Assembly (NCBI GenBank): GCA_964016885.1 | Contig: OZ024740.1 | Location: 29,512,001-29,576,000, forward strand | Origin: Eledone cirrhosa | Lineage: Eukaryota | Length of the DNA stretch: 64,000 nucleotides | Reading direction: 5' to 3' | In this document: positions 1-64,000 of the stretch, piece after piece | How the letters are laid out: each line of letters starts with the position of its first letter | How positions within the stretch are numbered: position 1 is the stretch's first letter | The notes under the pieces: model-generated | Database searches by the model: none | The model's input: only the letters and a program-made list of their open reading frames with translations | Told to the model about the DNA's origin: nothing | Translations under genes and position numbers: made by a program

Positions 1-969
<969 letters not shown>

Positions 970-1150
970 ATCAAAGTTCTTTCGTTGCACATCTGCAACA
1001 TCATCAGTGGTACTATTATGTTTCCTTCTATTGTATTGTATTTTATTGTATTGTATGTCTACGCCTATTTTTATTTTTATTTATTTATTTATTTATTCTT
1101 GCCTCTGTCTCTGTGCATGCGTTTGCGTGTATATATGTATATATATATAT

Positions 1151-1227
<77 letters not shown>

Positions 1228-1230
<3 letters not shown>

Positions 1231-1582
1231 AGTTCTACGACAGTTAATTAACCATTGCCGAGGACATTTGTTAATGAACTGTTGTGGAACTACTTCTACC
1301 AAACTGAGAACTCTACACCTTCACAACTTCCACCAAGCGATGCTTCTCCCACCATCTCTCTCTTTCACCACCTCTTCATTATAATCCCCCCCCCCATACA
1401 TATCACACATACCCAAACATTCCTTCTAGCAAAACCAATCAAAACGAACTAAAATTGACCACCATAAATAAATGTGAATCGTTATATATTGTTTCTAAGA
1501 GGTTCAGTCTGTCATTACCACAACAGAAGTCCGACGAGTTTTTTTTATTCCTGAGTTGGGCCAGATCGATACAGATCGAACC
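1228..1582 (+). mobile_element. Penelope-like non-coding remnant: 5' hairpin (1228-1294) and truncated hammerhead-like half (1529-1582) homologous to 15034-15086
   Basis: agtagttctacgacagttaattaac pairs with gttaatgaactgttgtggaactact; gt-ccgacgag...gggccagatcgatacagatcgaacc matches gt-ctgacgag...gggctagatcgatacagatcgaacc at 15035. Confidence 0.55.
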
Positions 1583-1875
1583 GATAAAATAAAGTACCAG
1601 TATACGCTGGGATAATTGCTGGCCTTGTGCGAAAAGTAGAAACAATTATTATTATTATTATTATTGGTTTCTTATATAGGCACAAGGCCAGCAATTTTGG
1701 GGGAGAGCAAAGTCGATTAAATCGACCCCAGTGCATGACTGGTACTTTATTTCATCCTTACGGAGTCGATAAAATAAAGTACCAGTCACGCACTGGGGTC
1801 GATTTAATCGACTTTCTCCTTTCACAAAATTGCTGGCCTTGTGCCTATATAAAAAACAATTATTATTATTATTAT
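1583..1875. mobile_element. SINE family A 3' tail (1583-1660, +) followed by two SINE 3' halves fused as a hairpin (1665-1870)
   Basis: gataaaataaagtaccag...gctggccttgtgc..aagtagaaacaatt tail; 1665-1752 is the reverse complement of 1771-1860. Confidence 0.85.
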
Positions 1876-2126
1876 TTCTTTCTGCTTAATACTACACCTC
1901 TATACTTACAGGAAACTATGCATCGAGTGCTCACTCTGGTGAACCCATAGTAACTGGTCGTTATGATCCCTAAATATATATATACACACACATCGGTCTT
2001 GTGTAGTTTCCATCTACGAAATTCTACTCATAAGGCATTGGTCAAGCCGTGGCTATAGTAGCAGACACAAGATAGCTAAGCGAACTTCTTAATTACAAAA
2101 CCATGTCTGCGGCTATATTATTATAA

Positions 2127-2313
2127 GGCTGTGGATTAACAGTATCGGTAGAAGGTCGGACGCCATGCTTTCCAGCATAGTTACGTCCCTTTACGGTCTG
2201 AGTTAAAATCCCGCCGAGGTTAACTTTGCCTTTCATCCTTACGAGGTCGATAAAATAAAGTACCAGTAATGTACTGGGTAATTGCTAGCCTTGTACCAAA
2301 CGTAGAAACAGTT
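2127..2313 (+). mobile_element. tRNA-derived SINE family A (MetaSINE-like core)
   Basis: Head tggatt..cagtatcggtaga, B-box-like gagtt(c)aaatccc, core gaggttaactttgcctttcatccttacg.ggtcgataaaataaagtacc; more than 10 copies in the window. Confidence 0.85.
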
Positions 2314-3756
2314 GTTTGGGGATTTTTATGAGGTTGGACATATTATTTGATCTGAAGAAAAACATTGTTTCATTATCTACAGTAATATTTCACAGGAAAC
2401 ATTACTGTACAAATATTACAGATTCCGAGGAAGACCAAAATCTTGTTAAAAAAGGTCGTCGGGTTAATATATCTTTTTATACAATTTAATTTTAAAAAAA
2501 CAAATATAATTATACGTTAATATGAATTATTCCTTCTCTAAAACAATTTTTATTTTATTTAATATCCTGTTAGTATTGTGGAGATTTCCATGAAATATAG
2601 GCATGTGTTTTGCGATTTTCTTAGAAGATCGCATAAGGATTCCACGACAAAACAATTTCGGTAACTTCTAATCTACAGTATCCTGAAATTCAGAAATTTG
2701 AAAATGTAGTGTAAACACTTAAAGGACCTTAGGGACTATCTTTAAATAATATTTAGTTAAGAATCTTGGGTGGTTGGTTCATTAATTTACCCAATCTTCA
2801 TCATCATTAATTCATAATGTATTAGGGAATTATCAACTAATCTTGTCTCGGAATTTATGCCATTAATGGCTTGTTGAGGGAAAAACTTGGCAGGTGTAAT
2901 GACAGCTCTCGTGGTACTAATGCCAAAAAGAGAGGAGAATTTGGTAGAAAGGAAGAATCCCTTGAGACATGTCGTTACATCAGCCAAATCTCTCATCCAA
3001 CAAGAGAAGCCATTAGAGTCAATAAGTACCGGAACAAGAATTCTCAATAATCCCTAATATGTCATTAGACAATGACAGCTCTGTAATGTAAGTTAACAGA
3101 CAACTTTCTCGGCCAAATATCTCTTCAAGTAAAGTTCATATTGCCCACCAAATGAATACAGCACATATTTTTTAAGTATTCTTTTCAATTCCTTAATAAA
3201 TAAAAACCTAGATACGATTAGTGTCCTGTTCCCCAGCAGATTACTTTAAATATATAATCTCCACACTGGCACCGAATGTATCTCTCATTCTTAGAACATC
3301 CATTTCAGTTTCGGTGGAATGATTGATTTCCTAGCAATCATCTTATTCCCATTACGGTCGTGTTGTTTAAAACTATTAAGCTTTGATTACTAATATGTGA
3401 AAGCTGAAGGTTTTCCTCTGGGTACTTTCTAAACGTCTGTATTATAATTGTTAGTTTTGCAGTAGTAGTGATGTATTTCACGATGTTAACTGTATTGTTG
3501 AGGGACGGCGATTTGTCATTTAACTTGATTTTAGTGGTCATTAAATTTAGAATGTAATTTTAAGATGTGGTTTGTGTGAGATTTGACTGATGTTTTCAGC
3601 AGTCCTTGACATTCGGTTCTGACGTAAATTCCCTGCGAACCACAGGAACACTAATTCAACCAGCCAGCACAATCTCATTCTAATCTTATTTTACCGTTTT
3701 AAATTGCAAAAGTAACTGGACGTTATGATCCCTAAATGTATATATATATATATATA

Positions 3757-53826: not shown

Positions 53827-54633
53827 TTTCTTTATTAGCCACAGGGGCACAAAAGAAGGGGACAAATACAACATACCCCCGAAAAAAATGTGCAACCCTC
53901 ATCTCCAGGAGTACGAAGAGCTTGTACTCCTTTCCTCTCCTCCTCCTTTTCCTCAACCTACAGGCTGATATAGAGAGAAGGCCCATTCACTCGGGCCATT
54001 CTCGCCACTTTCACCCACCTTTCATAAAACTTGCTGGGGTACAGCACCTCTCTCTCTATCCTGATTCTTCTTCCAAAGTGGTATTTGAAAAAAAGAATCA
54101 GTTGTTGGCCGGAGAGAAAGGTGTCTGACCTCAGCCCTTTCAACCTTGTCCACCATACAACCTCTTTCGCCATAGCTATCACACAAAGGAAAACCGCCTC
54201 TCCTTCGTTTTTGAAGGAGGGTGGCGGTTTCATCATGACAATGGACTCGGTGGTCAACTGGATTGGTCCCACCCGCGACAATAGTCGTTCTACATAGCCC
54301 CACAGGTCAGTGACGCCCGGGCAGTGTATGAATGCGTGCGCGACGGTTTCTTCGTCTCGCACGCACCTCGGACAGATCTTTTTTGCAGGGTCCCTGCCCG
54401 GGCGCCCATGTCTGTAGAGCTTGTCTCGAACTGGTAGAGCTCCTTGGTAGCACTGCCAGGCCAGGGACTTTTGGAAGTTGTCCATCGGTCCCGGGCGGAA
54501 GGTCCTACCGAACAGACTGGCCAGTTCATCTTCCTCTACGCCTAGAGTTTCACCGAGCGCGTCGTCGCACTTGCTGCGGACCAACCCTCTATAGAATGAC
54601 GAAGTGGAGTCTCCACTGATCTCCGGGTCCGTT
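53827..54633 (-). mobile_element. Tx1/L1-like copy E2, 5'-truncated, 16 bp TSD
   Basis: 208 aa ORF2 C-terminus; ttattagatagatata at 53811-53826 and, with expanded GATA, at 54632-54675. Confidence 0.92.
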
Positions 54634-54635
54634 AT

Positions 54636-54673
<38 letters not shown>

Positions 54674-54675
54674 TA

Positions 54676-55177
54676 TTTCTTTATTTGCCACAGGGGCGTA
54701 CAAAAATGGGACATTACAAGACGTGACGGCGGGGGTTTTACATAAAAATCATATAACTTTAACATTAATAAATAACAATAAACTATATATAATAAAATAA
54801 CAATTGAAATCCCCAAAAGGGGGAAGCGTTACTGCAGGGTTGTTTTACACCCCGTGGATAGAACAACCCTCAACACCAGGAACACGTTTTGTAGGTGTTC
54901 CCGTCTTCCCTCTGTTTATCTTCCTCAACCTACAGGTTTATATACAGAGAACGCCCATTCACCCAGGCCATTTTCGCTACATTCACTCACCTTTCAGCGA
55001 ATTTACTGGGGTGTAGCACCTCTCTCTCCAATCTCACCTTCCTTCTGAAGTGGTACTTAAAGAAGGGGATAAGTTGTTGTCCGGAGAGGAAGGTTTCTGT
55101 CCGCAGTCCTTTTAACCTCGTCCACCATATTACCTCTTTCGCCATAGCAACCAGACAGAGGAAAACCGCCTCTTTAG
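54676..55177 (-). mobile_element. Tx1/L1-like copy E1, 3' fragment
   Basis: KEVIWWTRLKGLRTETFLSGQQL...; 3' end gtggcaaataaagaaa followed by tatat(ctat)n. Confidence 0.9.
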
Positions 55178-55261
55178 CATTACTCCTTCATAGGTTAATG
55201 AAGGTACTCTCGTGTACAATATTTTCTGAGATTTGGATCCACTAATTTCGCTTAATTAAAA

Positions 55262-56057
55262 ATGATGTTTCGCGGCTTTTTGATCGACTTATTCATTTTT
55301 TCCATGGCACGGAAATGGAGTATTTCCATTTCGAATCAAAACTTTTCACTAAAATCGGGCAATTGGACTGATCAAATTCAGATTCATGCCAGTTTTTACA
55401 AATCCATAATTAGAAATGTGGCGAAATCGAATGACCAGAAGGTATAAAAATATTAATTCAATTGTATTTACTTATCATACCAACAAAAATACTTAGATAT
55501 TTTGTATACCTGGGGCCCGTCAGAGCCAGGTAATGTTAATCGCCAACATTGTTATCTGTTGTCCTTTTGTGAAAGTATTGGTGGTTCATGTCGGCTCTAA
55601 TGATCTGAATCCTCGTCGCACCGTTGGCACGACAAAGCTGTGCAAAGTAATACAATAATTTTTGCCCAAGTATTTTTTATTAATCATTTATTTGTAAATT
55701 AAGGATAAAGTGCCCATTCGAGGCACAAAACCGGAAAAACAGGGGAAGAGTCTCTTTGCAAGGCTACAGAAAATAGCGGAAAAGCACCACTGTACACCCA
55801 TTTTCTACAGTGGTGTCATTCCACGTCCACAAAGTGTAATTGAAAATAAAAATGACTTGGGCAAGAGAAATTCTCGTTTGGAAAAGTTTAATTACTGCAT
55901 GAAAGAAATGATTCAAAAATTGAACTTGCCCAATCTTCACATCATTGAAAATTGGTCAAAATTTGACAAATCTGACTTCAAACCAGATATGATTCATTTG
56001 AACAATGTTGGAAATTTTAAATTGACACAAATTTTTGCCAATGTTTTTGCCACCTGA
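55262..56057 (+). CDS. Spliced SGNH/GDSL-hydrolase-like gene (exons ..55441, 55497-55646, 55704-56057); start uncertain
   Basis: Two phase-0 GT-AG introns (55 and 57 nt) join SIIRNV / CIPGA..VVHVGSNDL / YSGVIPR..DMIHLN in one frame; block I lacks the canonical GD before S. Confidence 0.7.
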
Positions 56058-56097
56058 TCCTTGTTCTATGGCTGACTGACTAATTTTGTGACTTAAT

Positions 56098-56869
56098 AAA
56101 ATGTCATCATGCTAGTAATGCACAATGGTCATTTTTAAATTTAAATTTTATTAAATAGTTGTTGCTTGCATTGCCTTAAAATAGTAACAAGAATGTACAC
56201 ATACTTTTTAAAAATACATCATTATCAGTCAAATCAGTCAAATGTCACTAAAAGCCAGGTGGTCGATAACAACTTCTATAAGATTAGTTACATGCTCATA
56301 CATTGGATCACCTCTCATCAAGGGCATTGGGTATCTGAGATAATCATGGAGATAACTGATGAAGTCACAAATGAAGTGATGGTCTTCCAGTGTGAACAAC
56401 TCCCTATATCCATTGATATATGTGATGGCTTCCGATTCATAGGTGCATTTTATGAGGAATTCCATGCATCCTATTTTCAGTGATTCAATGGGCATTTTAT
56501 CAGAGATGATAAGGTATTTGACCACGTTTTGCTTTGTAAGTAAATTGGAGAGAATCACTGCAGTCAAAGTCATTTCTTTGCATGGGTTTTTGTCCATTTA
56601 AAAAAGTTAAAATGATAAAGTATTACTACTATATAACTTACATCTATTGTTGTAACACCATTGAAATGCACAAGTTTCACCAATTCACTATTATGCACTA
56701 ATCATCTCAAATGCATTCATGATTTACTAGCTTTGTCATTAAGCCAGTTGCCTCAACTAGATTGCAATTATACTCAAAAGAACTTTAAAATGTCAATCAC
56801 TTGTCAGTAATTCACTATGATCATTTAATTATTAGATAGTTGTTGCTTGCATTGCCTTAAAAAATAGTA
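56098..56869. repeat. ~85 bp direct repeats (56098-56186, 56787-56869) flanking the 119 aa ORF
   Basis: aaaatgtca...agtaat.cac.atg.tcattt...atagttgttgcttgcattgccttaaaa..tagta occurs twice. Confidence 0.8.
56238..56597 (-). CDS. 119 aa ORF with a BACK-domain-like helical motif
   Basis: ATG-started, non-repetitive; SNLLTKQNVVKYLIISDKMPIESLKIGCMEFL fits the L..NL..eNv..yL..aD......LK..C.eFi pattern of BTB-BACK proteins (pattern recognition only). Confidence 0.45.
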   Translation of the reverse strand: MDKNPCKEMTLTAVILSNLLTKQNVVKYLIISDKMPIESLKIGCMEFLIKCTYESEAITYINGYRELFTLEDHHFICDFISYLHDYLRYPMPLMRGDPMYEHVTNLIEVVIDHLAFSDI

Positions 56870-56870
56870 G

Positions 56871-57930
56871 ACCAGATAGAAAAATGCGTACAGCAAAAAA
56901 AAGTAATATTGTTGGAATATAAACCTTTAAAAATACAGGACAAGAAACTAAAATAAAACTTTAAAAGAATAGGACAAGAAACTAAAATAAAACTTTAAAG
57001 AATTGGACAAGAAATAAAAAATTTTACAATAATATTAGTGGCAACATTTTTTTATTCATTTCCTGTGCTATGCCCCAGTATCTTCTTGATTAGTGCATAA
57101 TAATTGTCATGCTCTCATTGTGCGTTGCCCCTGAGCGGTTGGTTCTGGTTGGGGTTGGTTGGCTAAGCTGTTCTGCTCCGTCAGAATGACCATTGCAAGA
57201 AGAATTGGCCGATGCAGCTGCAGGTCTCCTCCAAGAATGCACTTCTGGTCCCGCAACACCAGACGAAGATGGAGAAGACGACCGGGACAAGATGTCGACT
57301 CTGACCACCGACTACGGCACCTCCCTCAACCACCGGTCCTCCCTCCCTCTGTCCCGTCATCCCTCCAGTCCTCCTGCTCCCCCTTCCTGTACCAGAAAGC
57401 TGTGGCACGCATTCATCTGGACTGCCGGACTTGAACTCAAGGACAAGATGCAAGGAGAAGATGGACGGGTTGGTCAAGATCAAGGATGAGCGGGACGACA
57501 AGACCGTCCGCTGCTGCTCAAGATCTGTGCTCATGGGCCCATGGGTCCATTCACATTATGCATGACACATGAGGCGTGTCGCCGAATGAAGAAATAGGGG
57601 TATGGTTATGGCCCAATTGGTGTTCAAACCAGGATCAAATGATCCCCCCCGGTCTGACGACGACCTCTGAATGTGGAACCCAGAGCCTATGAATGTGGAA
57701 CTCGATTTTTACCTATAAAAATTTTGCCACTAATATTATTGTAAAATTTTTTATTTCTTGTCCAATTCTTTAAAGTTTTATCTTAGTTTCTTGTCCTATT
57801 CTTTTAAAGTTTTATTTTAGTTTCTTGTCCTATTCTTTTAAAGTTTTATTTTAGTTTCTTGTCCTGTATTTTTAAAGGTTTATATTCCAACAATATTACT
57901 TTTTTTTGCTGTACGCATTTTTCTATCTGG
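56871..57930. mobile_element. Inverted-repeat module: arms 56871-57045 and 57722-57930 with internal 34 bp subrepeats, GC-rich core, ends in (TA)n
   Basis: accagatagaaaaatgcgtacagc... vs ...gctgtacgcatttttctatctggt; the right arm has one extra aggacaagaaactaaaataaaactttaaaagaat unit; ggt-CTGACGA at 57651. Confidence 0.85.
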
Positions 57931-58056
57931 TATATATATATGTGTGTGTGTTTGTGTGTGTGTGTCTGAGTGTGTGTTTGTATATATACATGTGTGTGTG
58001 TGTCTGTGTGTGTGTGTGTGTGTGTCAGTGTATGTGTTTCTGTCTGTGTGTTTGTG

Positions 58057-58087
<31 letters not shown>

Positions 58088-58409
58088 CATTGTAAGTGTT
58101 TCTGTCTGTGTGTTTGTGTGTTTGTGTATATATATATATATATATGTGTGTGTCTGTGTGTGTATGTGTGTGTGTGTCAGTGTATGTGTTTCTGTCTGTG
58201 TGTTTGTGTATATATATATCTGTGCGTGTGTCTGTGTGTGTGTGTGTGTGTGTGTCACTGTATGTGTTTCTGTCTGTGTATGTGTGTGTGTGTATATATA
58301 TGTTTGTGCATTATGTGATATGTGTACGTTTGTAAGCGAGGCAGCACATATCTGACTCTCGCCTGGAGAGCGTCATACTGTGTACTACCTGTCAGTCAGT
58401 TGTGTTAAT

Positions 58410-58460
58410 ACTCCACTACTACTACTACTACTACCACTACTACTGCTGCTGCTGCTGCTG

Positions 58461-58500
<40 letters not shown>

Positions 58501-58570
58501 CACTACCACTACCACTACTGCTGCTGCTACTGCTGCTGCTGCTACTACTACTACTACTATTACTACTATT

Positions 58571-58614
<44 letters not shown>

Positions 58615-58655
58615 CACTACCACTACCACTACTACTACTACTACTACTGCTACTG

Positions 58656-58686
<31 letters not shown>

Positions 58687-59254
58687 CAGTACCACTACTA
58701 CTACCACTACTACTACTACCACTACTACTACTACCACTACCACCACTACTACTACCGCTACTACTACTACTGCTACTACTGCTACTACTACTACTGCTAC
58801 TGCTAGTGCTGCAACTGCTGCTACTGCTGCTACTCTACTACTACTACTACTACTACTACTGCTACTACTACTACTATACTGCTGCTGCTGCTGCTACTAC
58901 TACTACTACTGCTACTACTACTGCTACTACTACTGCTACTACTACTGCTATTACTACTACTGCTGTTGTTAGTGCTGCTACGACTGCTGTTACTACTACT
59001 ACTGCTGCTGTTTCTACTACTGCTACTACTACTACTAATGCTGCTACTGCTACTACTACTACAACTACTACCACTAATACTACTGCCATCACTACCACTA
59101 CTACAGCCACCACTACTACTACTACTACTACAACCACCACTGCTACTACTACAACCATCACCACCACTACTACTATTACTACTACTAATACTACTGTCAC
59201 TGCTACTACTACTATAACCACCACTACTACTACTACTACTACTACAGCCACCAG

Positions 59255-59291
<37 letters not shown>

Positions 59292-59312
59292 GTCACTGCC
59301 ACTACTACTACA

Positions 59313-59377
<65 letters not shown>

Positions 59378-60648
59378 CACTACCACACCGTCATATCCGC
59401 TATTATGTTTTGATTTATTTCCCGCCTTCAGTCATGAAAACTCCGGACATCTTCATATTTCGTTTTCATTCCAGTTTACACTCCCCACCACACCCCACCA
59501 CACTACACCACACTACACCACACCACACTACACTACACCACACTAGACCACACTACACTGCACCACACTACACCACACCACACCACACAACATTATACCA
59601 CTACCACCACCACAACCACCACCATCTATAGCAGAACCACAACTACCATTACCACCAACACCACCACCATCATTACCACCACCACCACCACCACCACTAC
59701 CGCCACCACCAACACCACTACCACCACCACCACCACCACCGCTAACACCACCACCACCTACACCACCACCACCACTACTACCACTACCACCACTAAAACC
59801 ACCACCACCACTACATACCACTACCACCACTACCACCATCACCACTACCACCACCACCACAGCTAACACCACCACCACCAGCACTAACAACACTACCACC
59901 ACTACAACCACCACAATCATCACCACCACCAACACCACCACTACCATCACCACCACTACCACCACAACCACCACCACTACCACCACCACCACCACCGTCA
60001 CCACTACTAACAACACCACCACTACCACCAATACTAGCACTACCAGCACCAACACCACCACCACCACCACCACTACTAACACTACCACCACCACCACTAC
60101 CATCCCTACCACTAATATTACCACTACCACCAACACCACTACCACCACTACTACCACCTCTACCACCACCACTACCAACACCACCACCAATACTACCACA
60201 AGCACCACCACTACCACCACTACCAAAACCACAACCACCACCACTACGACCACCACCACCCCACCACCACCCCACCACCACGACACCAGCACCATCACAC
60301 CACTACCACCACCACCACCACTACCACCACCACCACCACTACAACACCACTACACCACCACCACTACCACCACCACTACACCACCAGCACCCCATCACCA
60401 CTACACCACTACCACCATCACTACCACCACCACCACCACTACCACCACCACCACTACACCACCACCACCCCCCCACCGCTACCACCACCACCACCACTAC
60501 ACCACCACCACCCCACCACTACCACCACTACCACTACAACACCACTACACCACCTCCACCACCACCCTCATCACCACCACCACCACCACCAATACCACCA
60601 CCACCACCAATACCACCACCACCACCACCACCACCAATACTACTACTC
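58410..60648. repeat. (CTA/CCA)n compound array
   Basis: Seen directly. Confidence 0.97.
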
Positions 60649-61178
60649 CGTCATTTCTACATATATCTCCCCTTCCCCCTCCATATCTCCTCCTCTTCCG
60701 TCTTCCATCTATTTTCTTCCCCTCTCTCTTCTTATCTTCCCTCATCTGCAGCCCCTTCATCTTATTCTTCTTTTTCTCCAACTTCCCCTTATCTTCACTT
60801 CCCCCTCCCCCCTCCACCTTCACCCCCACCTCTCCTCATCGCCTTCCCCGCTTCTTCTTCTTCCTTCATCGCCTTCACCTCCCCACTCCCTTCTCCCCTC
60901 CCCTCCCCCTCTTCTTCACCTCCGGCAAACCAGGAAGCCAGGAAATTATTATATTCTTGTCTTCGTTTACTTTAACCATCTCTCTCATTCTCTCTCTCAC
61001 TCTCTCTCACTCTCATTCTCACTCTCACCCTCTCTCTCTTACACACTCTCTCTTTTTCTCCCCCCCCCCCACTACCTCTCTCTCTCTCTCTCTCTTTCGC
61101 TCTTTCTATATAACTATATATCTACCTCTCTCTCTCTACATATCTATATATAGGTATATATACATATAGGTATATATA

Positions 61179-61915
61179 CAACTTTTTTTAGCCGTTGCTC
61201 GCACCAACCGGAGGCATATGGTCTTTAAAGCGATGAAATACCAATGATGGTTGGAAGATCACTGATGAAGGACCACTTTATTCATATGTAACCCATTAGC
61301 AACCCCGCAGCACGTTTATTCTCATATTTACACATATATTTTTCCCCCGCTGTTACACGTCTATTTCGTTCTTACTGCTTCCTCTTTCTCTGTATCTTTA
61401 CCCTCTCTAGCAGTCACTCTCTCTGTTAGCCTCTTCCTCACCCTTCCCTCACTCATTCTCTGTTACTACCTCTCTTCCTCCTCCTTCTTCCCGTTTGACC
61501 TGTGCGTAATTCTTTTCTTTCGTACCCTTGGTCTGGCAGATCGCTTTTTTTCTCTCTCTCGTCTACGATTTCACAGAACTTACGTTCACCGAAACCACAG
61601 ACTATATCCCTTCTTCCTCCCGTTAGACCTGTACGGAATTCCTTCCTTGCTCACATTCCAACCAGGTTTGATGGTCTTTATTCTCTCTCGTTCACGATTT
61701 CACCGAATTTAAATTCATAGAAATTTGGGACTTGACTCCTTCTTCCTCATTTTTCGTTGCTTCACCATTTTTGTTTGTTTACACTCGTGTCCCCTTTATT
61801 TACGTGTCCCAACGACTTTTTTTAGCCGTTGCTCGCACCAACCGGAGGGGTATGGTCTTTAAAGCGATGAAATACCAATGATGGTGGGAAGATCATTGAT
61901 GAAGGACTAACTTTA

Positions 61916-61922
<7 letters not shown>
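61179..61922. mobile_element. Non-coding element with ~108 bp terminal direct repeats, abutting (TA)n
   Basis: actttttttagccgttgctcgcaccaaccggagg...tgatgaaggac..ctttattcatat at 61181 and 61816; internal diverged duplication (about 61480-61595 vs 61608-61722). Confidence 0.75.
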
Positions 61923-62007
<85 letters not shown>

Positions 62008-62072
62008 ATATTAACAAATGGAAACTATATTTATAAAACCATATTTATTTCATTATACATATTTCAAGGACA

Positions 62073-62139
<67 letters not shown>

Positions 62140-62149
62140 TATATATATG

Positions 62150-62186
<37 letters not shown>

Positions 62187-62449
62187 GTATATATGTATAT
62201 ATATATATATATGTATGTATATATTTATATATGTATATATATATATGTGTATATATATATATGTATATATATGTATATATATATGTATATATATATATGT
62301 ATATATATATGTATATATATATATGTGTATATATATATATATGTATATATATATGTATATATATATATGTATATATATATGTATATATATATATATGTAT
62401 ATATATATATGTATATATATATGTATATATATATATGTATATATATATG

Positions 62450-62481
<32 letters not shown>

Positions 62482-62493
62482 TGTATATATATG

Positions 62494-62556
<63 letters not shown>

Positions 62557-62563
62557 GTATATA

Positions 62564-62607
<44 letters not shown>

Positions 62608-62609
<2 letters not shown>

Positions 62610-64000
62610 CGATATTAAACAAATGGAAGCTATATTTATAAAACCATATTTATTTCGTTATATATATTTCTGGGATATCATATTAAAAATATGGTATGCC
62701 TTCCTCAGACAAAATACAATACATAAGCTGTTTTATAAATAATTATTGACATACCTTATAATAATGCAACTTCCATTTATAAAGTTGATTTGGCAGTGAA
62801 ACTGTTATGACAGTTATATAGAAAGAAAAACGAAGATGAGAAGAAGAAGATGAAGAGATGTATGTAAATAAAAAAAAGAAGAAGATGAAGAGATGTATGT
62901 AAAGAAAAACAACAGAGCAAGATAGAGAGACAAGGAGATATGGGAGAGAGAAATACATTGAGGAAGTGAAAAAATATAGTAGGCAGCTTTTGGACAGATG
63001 ATCATCGTATATGTGAGAGGTTAAGGAGGGAAGGGATACAGTTAAACTAGCCGACACATAAATCACGTCCAGTGTATAGGAGAAAAAGAAAGAAAGATGA
63101 CATATTTAAAATATATTAAAAATATATTATGTCTCATCCATTTGAATTATCAATTTTTATGAATTAGGTATTATAATGTAAATATCAGTATTCATGAATG
63201 AGACACATATCCATAATGTGTGAAAAAAATGACCACATGCTTAGTTTAAAAATTCTTAGGTCTATAAGCAAAATCTGAGATAAAACTTCAAACATAAGTA
63301 TATATGCATTCTCGTGAAAAAAGAAAAAGAGAAAAGAGAAGCTTATCTCAAATTCAAGTTGATAAATATAGACACACATGTGAACCTACGTGATATGCTC
63401 CACAGATTCTTATATTTCATGAAAAACTTCATTGCGTTACAAAAGATTCCATCCTACATACATTTACATACATATATACATATATATAGACATAAAATAT
63501 ATAAGATATACATTAACATTTAAAATAACATTCCAGCCTCACTTGCATGATTATCGATCAAGCATAGAGTAGACAACAGATATCAATATTAAAAATTAAA
63601 AACGCCAAGAATATCTTCGTCACTCCACAGAGTATCTAGGGACGCAAGAGAACATAGTATGCCACGCATATCGGTCACATAAAATCAGAATCAAAAGCAA
63701 ACAAAACCAAAATTGTTCACCAAGCCTTATTTACCAGAAATCATTCAAAACTTATTCTACAAATGCTCTTATATTTATTATAGAAGTTTATCCAGCTTAA
63801 AAATTTATTCAAAAGATTGGGAACAACGCCAATTTTAGGGTAGTTTATTTAATCTCATTAATTATATATTCATACAGAAAGGTTTTAAAAAAATTGAAGG
63901 AATCGAAAGATTTATCGCCAAGTTTCATAAATATCCTTAACCTCTCACATATACGATGATCATCTGTCCAAAAGCTGCCTACTATATTTTTTCACTTCCT
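62608..64000. mobile_element. Fold-back element of the 33 kb family; left arm 62608-63027, right arm begins at 63934 and runs off the window
   Basis: 62960-63027 is the exact reverse complement of 63934-64000; shared terminus tatatttataaaaccatatttatt; truncated extra terminus at 62001-62075. Confidence 0.85.
62651..62717 (-). ncRNA. Type I minimal hammerhead ribozyme
   Basis: Minus strand: tattttgt-CTGAGGA-aggcataccatatt(ttt)aatatgatatccca-GAAA-tatata-TA-acgaaata. Confidence 0.85.

Follow-up and report, generated by a model that had tools for sequence, protein, structure and literature searches.

Introduction

What carries a small, apparently intact, intron-containing esterase gene that lies among transposons? 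The question is raised by a 64,000-nt stretch of the Eledone cirrhosa genome on contig OZ024740.1 (hereafter the window, in which all positions below are counted unless another locus is named), where a three-exon reading frame with the motifs of SGNH esterases is found at 55262–56057. A first-pass annotation of the window described it as a hidden gene and considered it to be either the cargo of an unrecognised intron-bearing mobile element or virus, with Penelope-like Terminons in mind, or a domesticated esterase. Comparison with the other copies in the genome and with their long relatives leads to a different reading: what looks like an esterase gene is very likely a chimeric open reading frame (ORF) carried by a non-autonomous Helitron of 3.6 kb, the window copy of which is truncated, and this ORF is probably a non-functional passenger. 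An internal deletion of approximately 9 kb in a 12.6-kb Helitron fused the start of its first ORF to the esterase after the Gly-Asp pair of block I, and the deletion derivative then spread to more than 100 copies. In the mechanism proposed, the short element would have been copied in trans, through rolling-circle transposition, by the Rep-helicase protein (RepHel) of the long relatives. The origin of exon 1 and of its FYKS motif, the family of deletion derivatives, and one empty insertion site are new.

A Spliced Frame Within a Repeated Element

The three-exon model was confirmed by direct sequence reading and by stop-to-stop frames (Table 1). Splicing of the window copy in a script yields 227 open codons, in which KSIIRNV, CIPGA, VHVGSND, SGVIPR, and DMIHLN follow one another in the order typical of SGNH enzymes; the frame, both GT–AG introns, and the five motifs are exactly those given in the first-pass annotation. 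The conservation of the introns among copies, which that annotation had proposed to examine, was assessed in 26 aligned copies, a non-random sample in which the 12 top matches are mixed with the 20 that diverge most: the donor GT is present at both introns in all 26 copies and the acceptor AG at each intron in 25. Furthermore, the esterase introns (54–55 and 57 nt, GT..AG) are identically placed in all three long relatives described below. The three-exon structure is not a matter of chance, because its splice sites are kept both across copies and in the long relatives. In contigs of four sequencing runs, both introns are still in place, as expected of DNA, and no intron-skipping joint was found, a result that is silent on expression.

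Copy number and shared flanks, likewise named for checking, place the frame in a repeat. A search of the 3.0-Gb genome with exon 3, in which 150 matches were scored from 303 candidates, so that the counts are lower bounds, revealed at least 150 copies, mostly 91–98% identical and located on many contigs and chromosomes. Comparison of the copies defined a sharply bounded repeat unit of 3576 bp, for which a reference copy was assembled from two loci (L012 and L015) and compared with the window by BLAST. Reference positions 1–889, including the left terminus, are absent across the entire 64-kb window, and the window copy would be immobile because this terminus is missing. The frame first described as a hidden gene is real, but it is not a single gene. 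Exon-3 matches at 79–91% identity were considered as parent host genes and rejected, since each of the 20 that were fetched proved to be a whole or partial copy belonging to this repeat family (the short element in 18 cases and the long type in two, L024 and L038). Among 31 loci checked, 26 are chimeric, with the 5′ part contiguous with the esterase, two are of the long type, and three are otherwise truncated.

Table 1. Coordinates of the esterase-like frame, of the Helitron copy that contains it, and of the adjoining features in the window
Feature	Position	Strand	Basis or remark
5′-truncated Helitron copy	55212–57930	+	Reference positions 890–3576 by BLAST
End of the untranslated stretch before the first ORF of the long element, 50 bp	55212–55261	+	Colinear with L073 upstream of the MMFRG start
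Exon 1	55262–55441	+	Opens ATGATG
First 48 codons (MMFRG...ASFYKS), from the first ORF of the long element (Rep side)	55262–55406	+	Base-by-base match to the C2 copy
Deletion junction within SGNH block I, microhomology TC..A	55403–55407	+	Three-way comparison of the window and the long copy (5′ site, 3′ site)
Remainder of exon 1 (IIRNVAKSNDQK), esterase part past block I	55407–55441	+	Identical to the exon of the long copies, ..KYIVGDSIIRNVAKSNDQK
Intron 1, 55 nt, GT..AG	55442–55496	+	Predicted from sequence
Exon 2, including blocks II (CIPGA) and III (VHVGSND)	55497–55646	+	Sequence and frames
Intron 2, 57 nt, GT..AG, in frame, two TAA codons	55647–55703	+	Predicted from sequence
Exon 3 with SGVIPR and block V (DMIH)	55704–56054, stop codon 56055–56057	+	Pfam, language-model look-alikes
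119-codon ORF with Met start, BTB/BACK-like features (lead only)	56238–56597	-	Atlas 0.92 to BTB clusters, recognition 2293 (borderline)
Left arm of internal inverted repeat, about 217 bp, with short tandem units	56872–57088		BLAST self-matches
Right arm of the inverted repeat, ending exactly at the 3′ terminus of the element	57714–57930		BLAST self-matches
13-nt subterminal repeat CAACAATATTACT, complementary to positions 27–39 of full-length copies	57888–57900	+	blastn-short, reference copy
3′ terminus ..CTATCTGG of the CTRR type; next base T (57931)	57923–57930	+	End comparison
LINE ORF2 C-terminal fragment, ending about 25 bp from the truncated left edge	54987–55187	-	Frames, Pfam
Longer related LINE ORF2 C-terminal fragment	53958–54680	-	Pfam, zf-RVT E = 5.4e-7

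LINE, long interspersed nuclear element.

The Long Relatives and the Origin of FYKS

The parent of the esterase part was recovered through its neighboring domain. A genome search with the Pfam NADAR profile gave a single match, on contig C12, where a match to exon 3 follows 0.7–1 kb downstream. In this copy, similarity to the 3.6-kb element begins at reference position 1081, and the frame upstream of it (..LMVVRALLNKNHPQFKYIVGDSIIRNV) shows the end of NADAR running into a canonical block I (YIVGDSIIRNV) within one exon. Long copies of this kind on contigs C12, C2, and C28 consist of reference positions 1–1095, approximately 9 kb of extra DNA, and positions 1081–3576; the last ~2500 bp are common to the long and short elements, and the C28 copy measures 12.6 kb from its initial TCC to its final CTGG. 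In the C2 copy (L073), Pfam identifies Helitron_like_N (7.7e-24), DUF6570 (1.9e-14), PIF1 (1.3e-8), UvrD_C_2 (2.7e-7), and UCH (3.2e-7), and its extra DNA also holds REP_ORF2-G2P, Pif1_2B, and the NADAR exons. A Rep protein of the HUH type and a PIF1-type helicase are therefore encoded by relatives with the same terminal regions, a combination that identifies the family as a Helitron. The parent NADAR–SGNH gene, which has mini-introns, is separate from the RepHel–UCH region and located downstream of it. Its NADAR part, read through two exons with stops as X, scores 33.2 bits (cut-off 35.1; E = 7.5e-8) over profile positions 5–116, and the NADAR exon is found at 99–100% identity in only three copies, plus two partial ones.

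The first ORF of the C2 copy (607–1578 of L073) begins MMFRGFLIGLFIFSMARKW...ASFYKSKKRN, and this is where exon 1 of the window copy comes from. Up to ..AAATCCA, 54 of the 55 positions displayed match between the window and this 5′ ORF. Through ..TTTTTACAAATCCA (to 55406), the window sequence corresponds to the long element's first ORF; from ATAATTAGAAATG on, it corresponds to the esterase exon. The serine codon TCC of the window is that of the Rep-side ORF itself (K-S-K), whereas the parent esterase has GAT TCA (D-S). The short element is thus the long one minus approximately 9 kb, with codon 48 joined to the codon after Gly-Asp and the frame kept; the Gly-Asp of block I was turned into Tyr-Lys through the deletion, and the NADAR exons were lost in the same event, whereas the two esterase introns were inherited from the parent gene. 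This deletion accounts for both the FYKS motif and the odd hydrophobic first 48 residues. As the chimeric arrangement is shared by 26 of the 31 loci, a single event was amplified. A missing exon or decay had first been suggested for FYKS; neither point decay nor simple exon loss describes it, and what stands is that an upstream part is missing, namely the NADAR exons removed with the ~9 kb.

Two further observations concern this region. In the first ORF of L073, ..LLIIGCVELNPGPEF.. is read at 829–855, ~73–81 residues past the start and beyond the deletion junction, so that it is absent from the window; we take it to resemble a ribosome-skipping motif of the 2A type (D/x-V-E-x-NPGP). In a sequencing run labelled as a second organism, short contigs are 98–100% identical to parts of the element within 55213–57221, and one short contig leaves the window sequence at 55404, at the deletion junction.

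Termini and Insertion Site

Full copies start with TCCTAAACGGACGGTAGTCCGTTTAG (TCC), which contains a stem of 9–10 bp (-8.6 kcal/mol), and end with ..GCTGTACGCATTTTTCTATCTGG (CTGG). Of 15 left ends, 13 have A before TCC, one has G, and one has T, and all 14 right ends have T after CTGG; no target-site duplication of the flanking bases was found at the left and right ends examined. An empty site was identified for one locus (L028), both flanks of which are joined in a local duplicate 270 nt downstream (left 31/32 and right 29/30 matching), and it shows that the element inserted precisely between an A and a T. Reference positions 27–39 and 3534–3546 form a 13-nt inverted repeat, which is subterminal rather than terminal; its left partner is missing from the window copy. 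Many copies elsewhere in the genome are located in (TA)n tracts.

Derivatives and Sequence Evolution of the Copies

The family includes further internal deletion derivatives. In the first class, reference positions 1–273 are joined to 1553–3576, so that most of the esterase is gone; at least 22 such copies are present among the matches listed, and the arrangement was seen in three of four fetched loci, the fourth having a further deletion. The second class (two loci) joins positions 1–1631 to 2280–3532, and the third (~85 matches) is short and contains only a fragment of the NADAR exon. Both termini are kept in the amplified deletion derivatives. Since derivatives without the esterase have multiplied, the esterase is unnecessary in cis, and the pattern as a whole is consistent with mobilisation of a DNA transposon in trans.

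The full frame is intact in 13 of the 26 aligned copies. Diversity amounts to 0.022, 0.015, and 0.024 at codon positions 1–3 and to 0.020 over the exons, against 0.016 in the introns, and pN/pS is 0.73 in the 18 gap-free copies. By a hand count, in-frame stops occur in 22 of the 124 near-full exon-3 matches among those listed, which, on a rough estimate, is about the number expected from a drift of 1–2% off a master copy. The copies appear to decay neutrally or nearly neutrally. The chimeric protein, made of 48 foreign residues and an esterase without Gly-Asp, would not be needed, because its copies drift neutrally and derivatives lacking the esterase have multiplied.

These data bear on two other explanations. 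That the chimeric ORF is expressed and useful, with a promoter and start codon from the Rep side driving a small esterase that aids the element or the host, is unlikely: exon diversity is not below that of the introns, half of the sampled copies are broken, derivatives without the esterase were amplified too, and the Gly-Asp of block I has been replaced and the NADAR partner lost, even though the fusion is in frame with 227 open codons in the window copy, the serine at the catalytic position is retained together with CIPGA, GSND, and DMIH, the esterase-bearing derivative is the most abundant class among the exon-3 matches listed, and both the pN/pS value and the low diversity at second codon positions would be compatible with a function. 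Very unlikely is a single-copy or domesticated host esterase among transposons. The intact frame of the window and its canonical-looking introns are what such a gene would present, but at least 150 near-identical copies are spread over many chromosomes, sharply bounded shared flanks define the 3.6-kb repeat, substitution is neutral, with intron diversity no higher than that of the exons, and the first 48 codons derive from a transposon ORF; the domesticated esterase first suggested is not borne out. With the frame read as a passenger of the Helitron, a lesson for annotation follows: a clean spliced gene with catalytic motifs can be the scar of a deletion in a transposon, one that gene finders could call more than 100 times in this genome.

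Probable Assignment of the Esterase Part to the SGNH Family

In Pfam, exon 3 matches Lipase_GDSL_3 (E = 0.0011, 19.7 bits against a cut-off of 27) over profile positions 78–176 of 178. Intron 2 is in frame, so exon 2, intron 2, and exon 3 were also read through, with the TAA stops as X, and used as a profile query; this read-through matches Lipase_GDSL_2 from block III to block V (E = 0.013, 16.5 bits against 32.9). The Gly of block II, the Gly-x-Asn-Asp of block III, and the Asp-x-x-His of block V are present in order (CIPGA, VGSND, and DMIH), with 18 residues from Ser to Gly and 29 residues from Gly to Asn. In block I of the window, FYKS, the Ser is retained and Gly-Asp replaced, whereas the parent exon of the long copies has VGDS. 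The language-model (Atlas) look-alikes of exon 3 include GDSL clusters at 0.90–0.92; the ten best family-bearing matches all share a family or clan with the top one, and the rows displayed are GDSL.

The only PF13472 match obtained in a profile search of the genome (L061:1417–2814, minus strand, contig C18) is a 466-codon ORF1 of the type found in LINEs, with a coiled-coil-like middle and GCS rather than GDS in block I, whose database relatives are 82–93% identical. The motif style of the window frame resembles, in our judgment, that of such LINE ORF1 esterases: the block order is the same, and SSILPR corresponds to SGVIPR, DGIHLS to DMIHLN, and HAGANDL to HVGSNDL. By contrast, the LINE esterases are intronless and follow a coiled coil upstream of a reverse transcriptase, whereas the Helitron frame has two introns. 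Aligned by hhalign with the LINE ORF1 esterase profile, the window frame gives E = 0.00048 at block III; overall, comparisons with the LINE esterase of the genome range from E = 0.0005 to 0.06 at probabilities of 0.9–32%. The alignment, which pairs SSILPR with SGVIPR and RDGIHLS with PDMIHLN, is weak but colinear with exons 2 and 3. An hmmsearch with a profile of three LINE esterases against the proteins spliced in the script scores ~1 bit.

Database searches with the frame added no relatives. In a phmmer search of 1.84 billion representatives, the sole match to exon 3 was a repetitive protein of 779 residues, judged spurious; homologous-protein searches with exon 3 and with the NADAR read-through returned none, and no SGNH match was found by phmmer in PDB. 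The single-sequence AlphaFold model of the read-through of exon 2, intron 2, and exon 3 is unusable, with a mean predicted local distance difference test score (pLDDT) of 39.4. Profile support for SGNH is accordingly weak, and the probable assignment to this family draws on motifs and sub-threshold profile scores. The possibility that the frame is not SGNH at all, its motifs being a chance resemblance in an AT-rich transposon ORF, nevertheless appears quite unlikely. It would agree with Pfam matches that all lie under the curated cut-offs, with the low hhalign probabilities against the LINE esterase of the genome, with the phmmer searches devoid of a true relative and, in PDB, of an SGNH match, and with a pLDDT of 39; yet the two best Pfam families are both GDSL and match colinearly between blocks III and V, block I of the parent exon is a textbook GDS, four blocks are properly ordered at spacings of 18 and 29 residues, the top family-bearing Atlas matches are GDSL, and the alignment with the LINE ORF1 esterase pairs the corresponding motifs.

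The Helitron Family and Known Systems

That the frame is the cargo of a mobile element, as first suggested, is confirmed, but neither an unrecognised element nor a virus is needed: the carrier is a Helitron, with Helitron_like_N at E = 7.7e-24 and pieces of PIF1 and without a reverse transcriptase. Helitrons are a class of DNA transposons that copy DNA, and kept introns are therefore expected. In the ORFs of the 12.6-kb parent, neither a reverse transcriptase nor GIY-YIG was found, and a reverse transcriptase is absent from the 3.6-kb element too. An intron-keeping retroelement as the carrier (a LINE ORF1 of the CR1/L2 type, a Penelope-like element, or a Terminon) is extremely unlikely, since the parent ORFs encode Rep, helicase, and UCH, the internal deletion derivatives retain both ends, neither a tail nor a target duplication was found, and the adjoining LINE pieces have the opposite orientation and fall beyond the limits of the repeat unit. 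Such a carrier would nevertheless agree with the weak alignments to the LINE ORF1 esterase, with the 5′ truncation of some copies, including that of the window, with the LINE fragments that abut the window copy, and with the GDSL esterases carried by Terminons; these last are in print (PMC6431247), as the first-pass annotation had stated, although its link to Penelope-like elements or Terminons as the carrier here is not upheld.

Among Helitrons, the family has a mixed character. The HELIANO article (PMC11417382) gives TC...CTRR ends and insertion between A and T as traits of HLE1, whereas DUF6570 and UCH are described there as almost confined to HLE2, a group with short inverted repeats at its termini and a T–T insertion site, and "HLE2-reverse" forms as having a 5′ stem-loop upstream of the left repeat. 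The Eledone family is similar to HLE2 (Helentron/Helitron2) in DUF6570 and UCH beside RepHel, the 13-nt inverted repeat near the ends, and the 5′ stem-loop; it differs in the TC...CTGG ends, the A–T insertion at the sole empty site, and the subterminal position of the repeat pair. According to the same article, non-autonomous Helitrons arise from autonomous ones by internal deletion and share both termini with them (PMC11417382). The short element corresponds to these in its shared ends, its lost transposase, and a copy number far above that of the long form, but differs in that two frames were fused in frame to yield an ORF that mimics a small spliced gene. The words SGNH, GDSL, NADAR, and esterase do not occur in the main text of the HELIANO article (PMC11417382), its supplementary table of 20 domains lying outside that check.

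Intron-bearing SGNH genes related to CR1 esterases, termed texim, have been described beside Helitron coding regions in several fishes, and the same report did not find the association in amphioxus, sea urchin, and Oikopleura (PMC4021074). Its authors leave open whether texim has a role in transposition or is a captured spermatogenesis gene (PMC4021074; Tomaszkiewicz et al., 2014). This association is the closest precedent for the present family: in both, as far as the published description extends, an intron-bearing SGNH gene lies by or in a RepHel-bearing Helitron and was multiplied with it, a likeness of genomic arrangement alone. They differ in that the host, E. cirrhosa, belongs to another phylum, the parent is a NADAR–SGNH gene downstream of RepHel–UCH, and the window copy is a chimera, produced by a deletion, that takes its N-terminus from a transposon ORF. 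The parent, rather than the window copy, is what matters for transposon biology: it represents a family of Helitrons found outside fishes whose SGNH esterase is fused to NADAR and lies beside a ubiquitin hydrolase; a second, independent association of SGNH with Helitrons makes the texim question, whether the esterases serve the transposon, testable.

NADAR enzymes strip ADP-ribose from nucleic-acid bases (PMC11543638, PMC11125620), and NADAR has been reported in Gypsy and Tx1 retroelements (PMC12477816). The N-terminal half of the parent gene matches Pfam NADAR below threshold, and NADAR is absent from the window; a NADAR–SGNH fusion inside a Helitron was not found in the literature searched. 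It may be speculated, at rather long odds, that the parent NADAR–SGNH protein serves the Helitron as an accessory enzyme instead of having been captured at random: its NADAR domain would free the bases of the single-stranded transposition intermediate from ADP-ribose, and its esterase would cleave off an acyl or ester-linked portion of that mark, in a counter-defence against ADP-ribosylation of DNA by the host. If this were true, the parent enzyme, texim, the LINE ORF1 esterases, and the GDSL proteins of Terminons would together indicate that mobile elements of unrelated kinds have acquired SGNH esterases several times to a common end, and the in-frame chimera, present in so many copies, could have remained active as an offshoot that has the esterase only.

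Several observations weigh against the reading of the window frame as a passive chimera in a Helitron derivative. As set out above, none of the Pfam matches of exon 3 and of the read-through reaches the curated threshold for SGNH, phmmer yielded one spurious match, and the structural model could not be used. In formal terms, the chimera has the nucleophile Ser, the Gly, the Asn, and the Asp-x-x-His, and its two parts are joined in frame; furthermore, a pN/pS of 0.73 and second codon positions that are the least diverse leave room for weak constraint. Regarding the Helitron itself, ends and target of the HLE1 kind are combined with DUF6570 and UCH, the marker domains of HLE2; the one empty site found is paralogous; and the canonical short hairpin at the 3′ end is weak (-1.2 kcal/mol), with the 217-bp inverted repeat ending at the terminus instead. 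An intact RepHel was not found: the five long or RepHel-bearing copies examined all have copy-specific frame breaks. These breaks differ between long copies, and the coding region was therefore formerly continuous. The MMFRG ORF, which is linked to RepHel by position, may be the N-terminal part of this protein or a distinct ORF upstream of it. In five large and 12 small RepHel loci, selected by the best Pfam scores, no DNA in common with the 3.6-kb element was found.

Other Features of the Element and Its Neighborhood

Downstream of the esterase-like frame, the window copy contains a minus-strand ORF of 119 codons (Table 1), for which no Pfam family was found at E < 0.01 and which may be a further captured gene fragment. 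Between the arms of the inverted repeat lies a GC-rich island (57130–57680) in an otherwise AT-rich element, with open frames of 86–124 codons on both strands; no Pfam or Rfam match was found for these ORFs, and none in Rfam at E ≤ 0.1 for 54000–58500. In the contigs of three sequencing runs, the summed word depth of the inverted-repeat arms (56787–57008 and 57675–57896) is ~10–30 times that of the esterase part, and that of 57120–57674 is ~3–6 times as high. The 3′ module is probably common to far more abundant relatives.

The truncated left edge of the copy is adjoined by the two LINE ORF2 fragments listed in Table 1. On its 3′ side, low-complexity DNA extends over several kilobases (57931–62750) and includes microsatellites of the TG/TA type.

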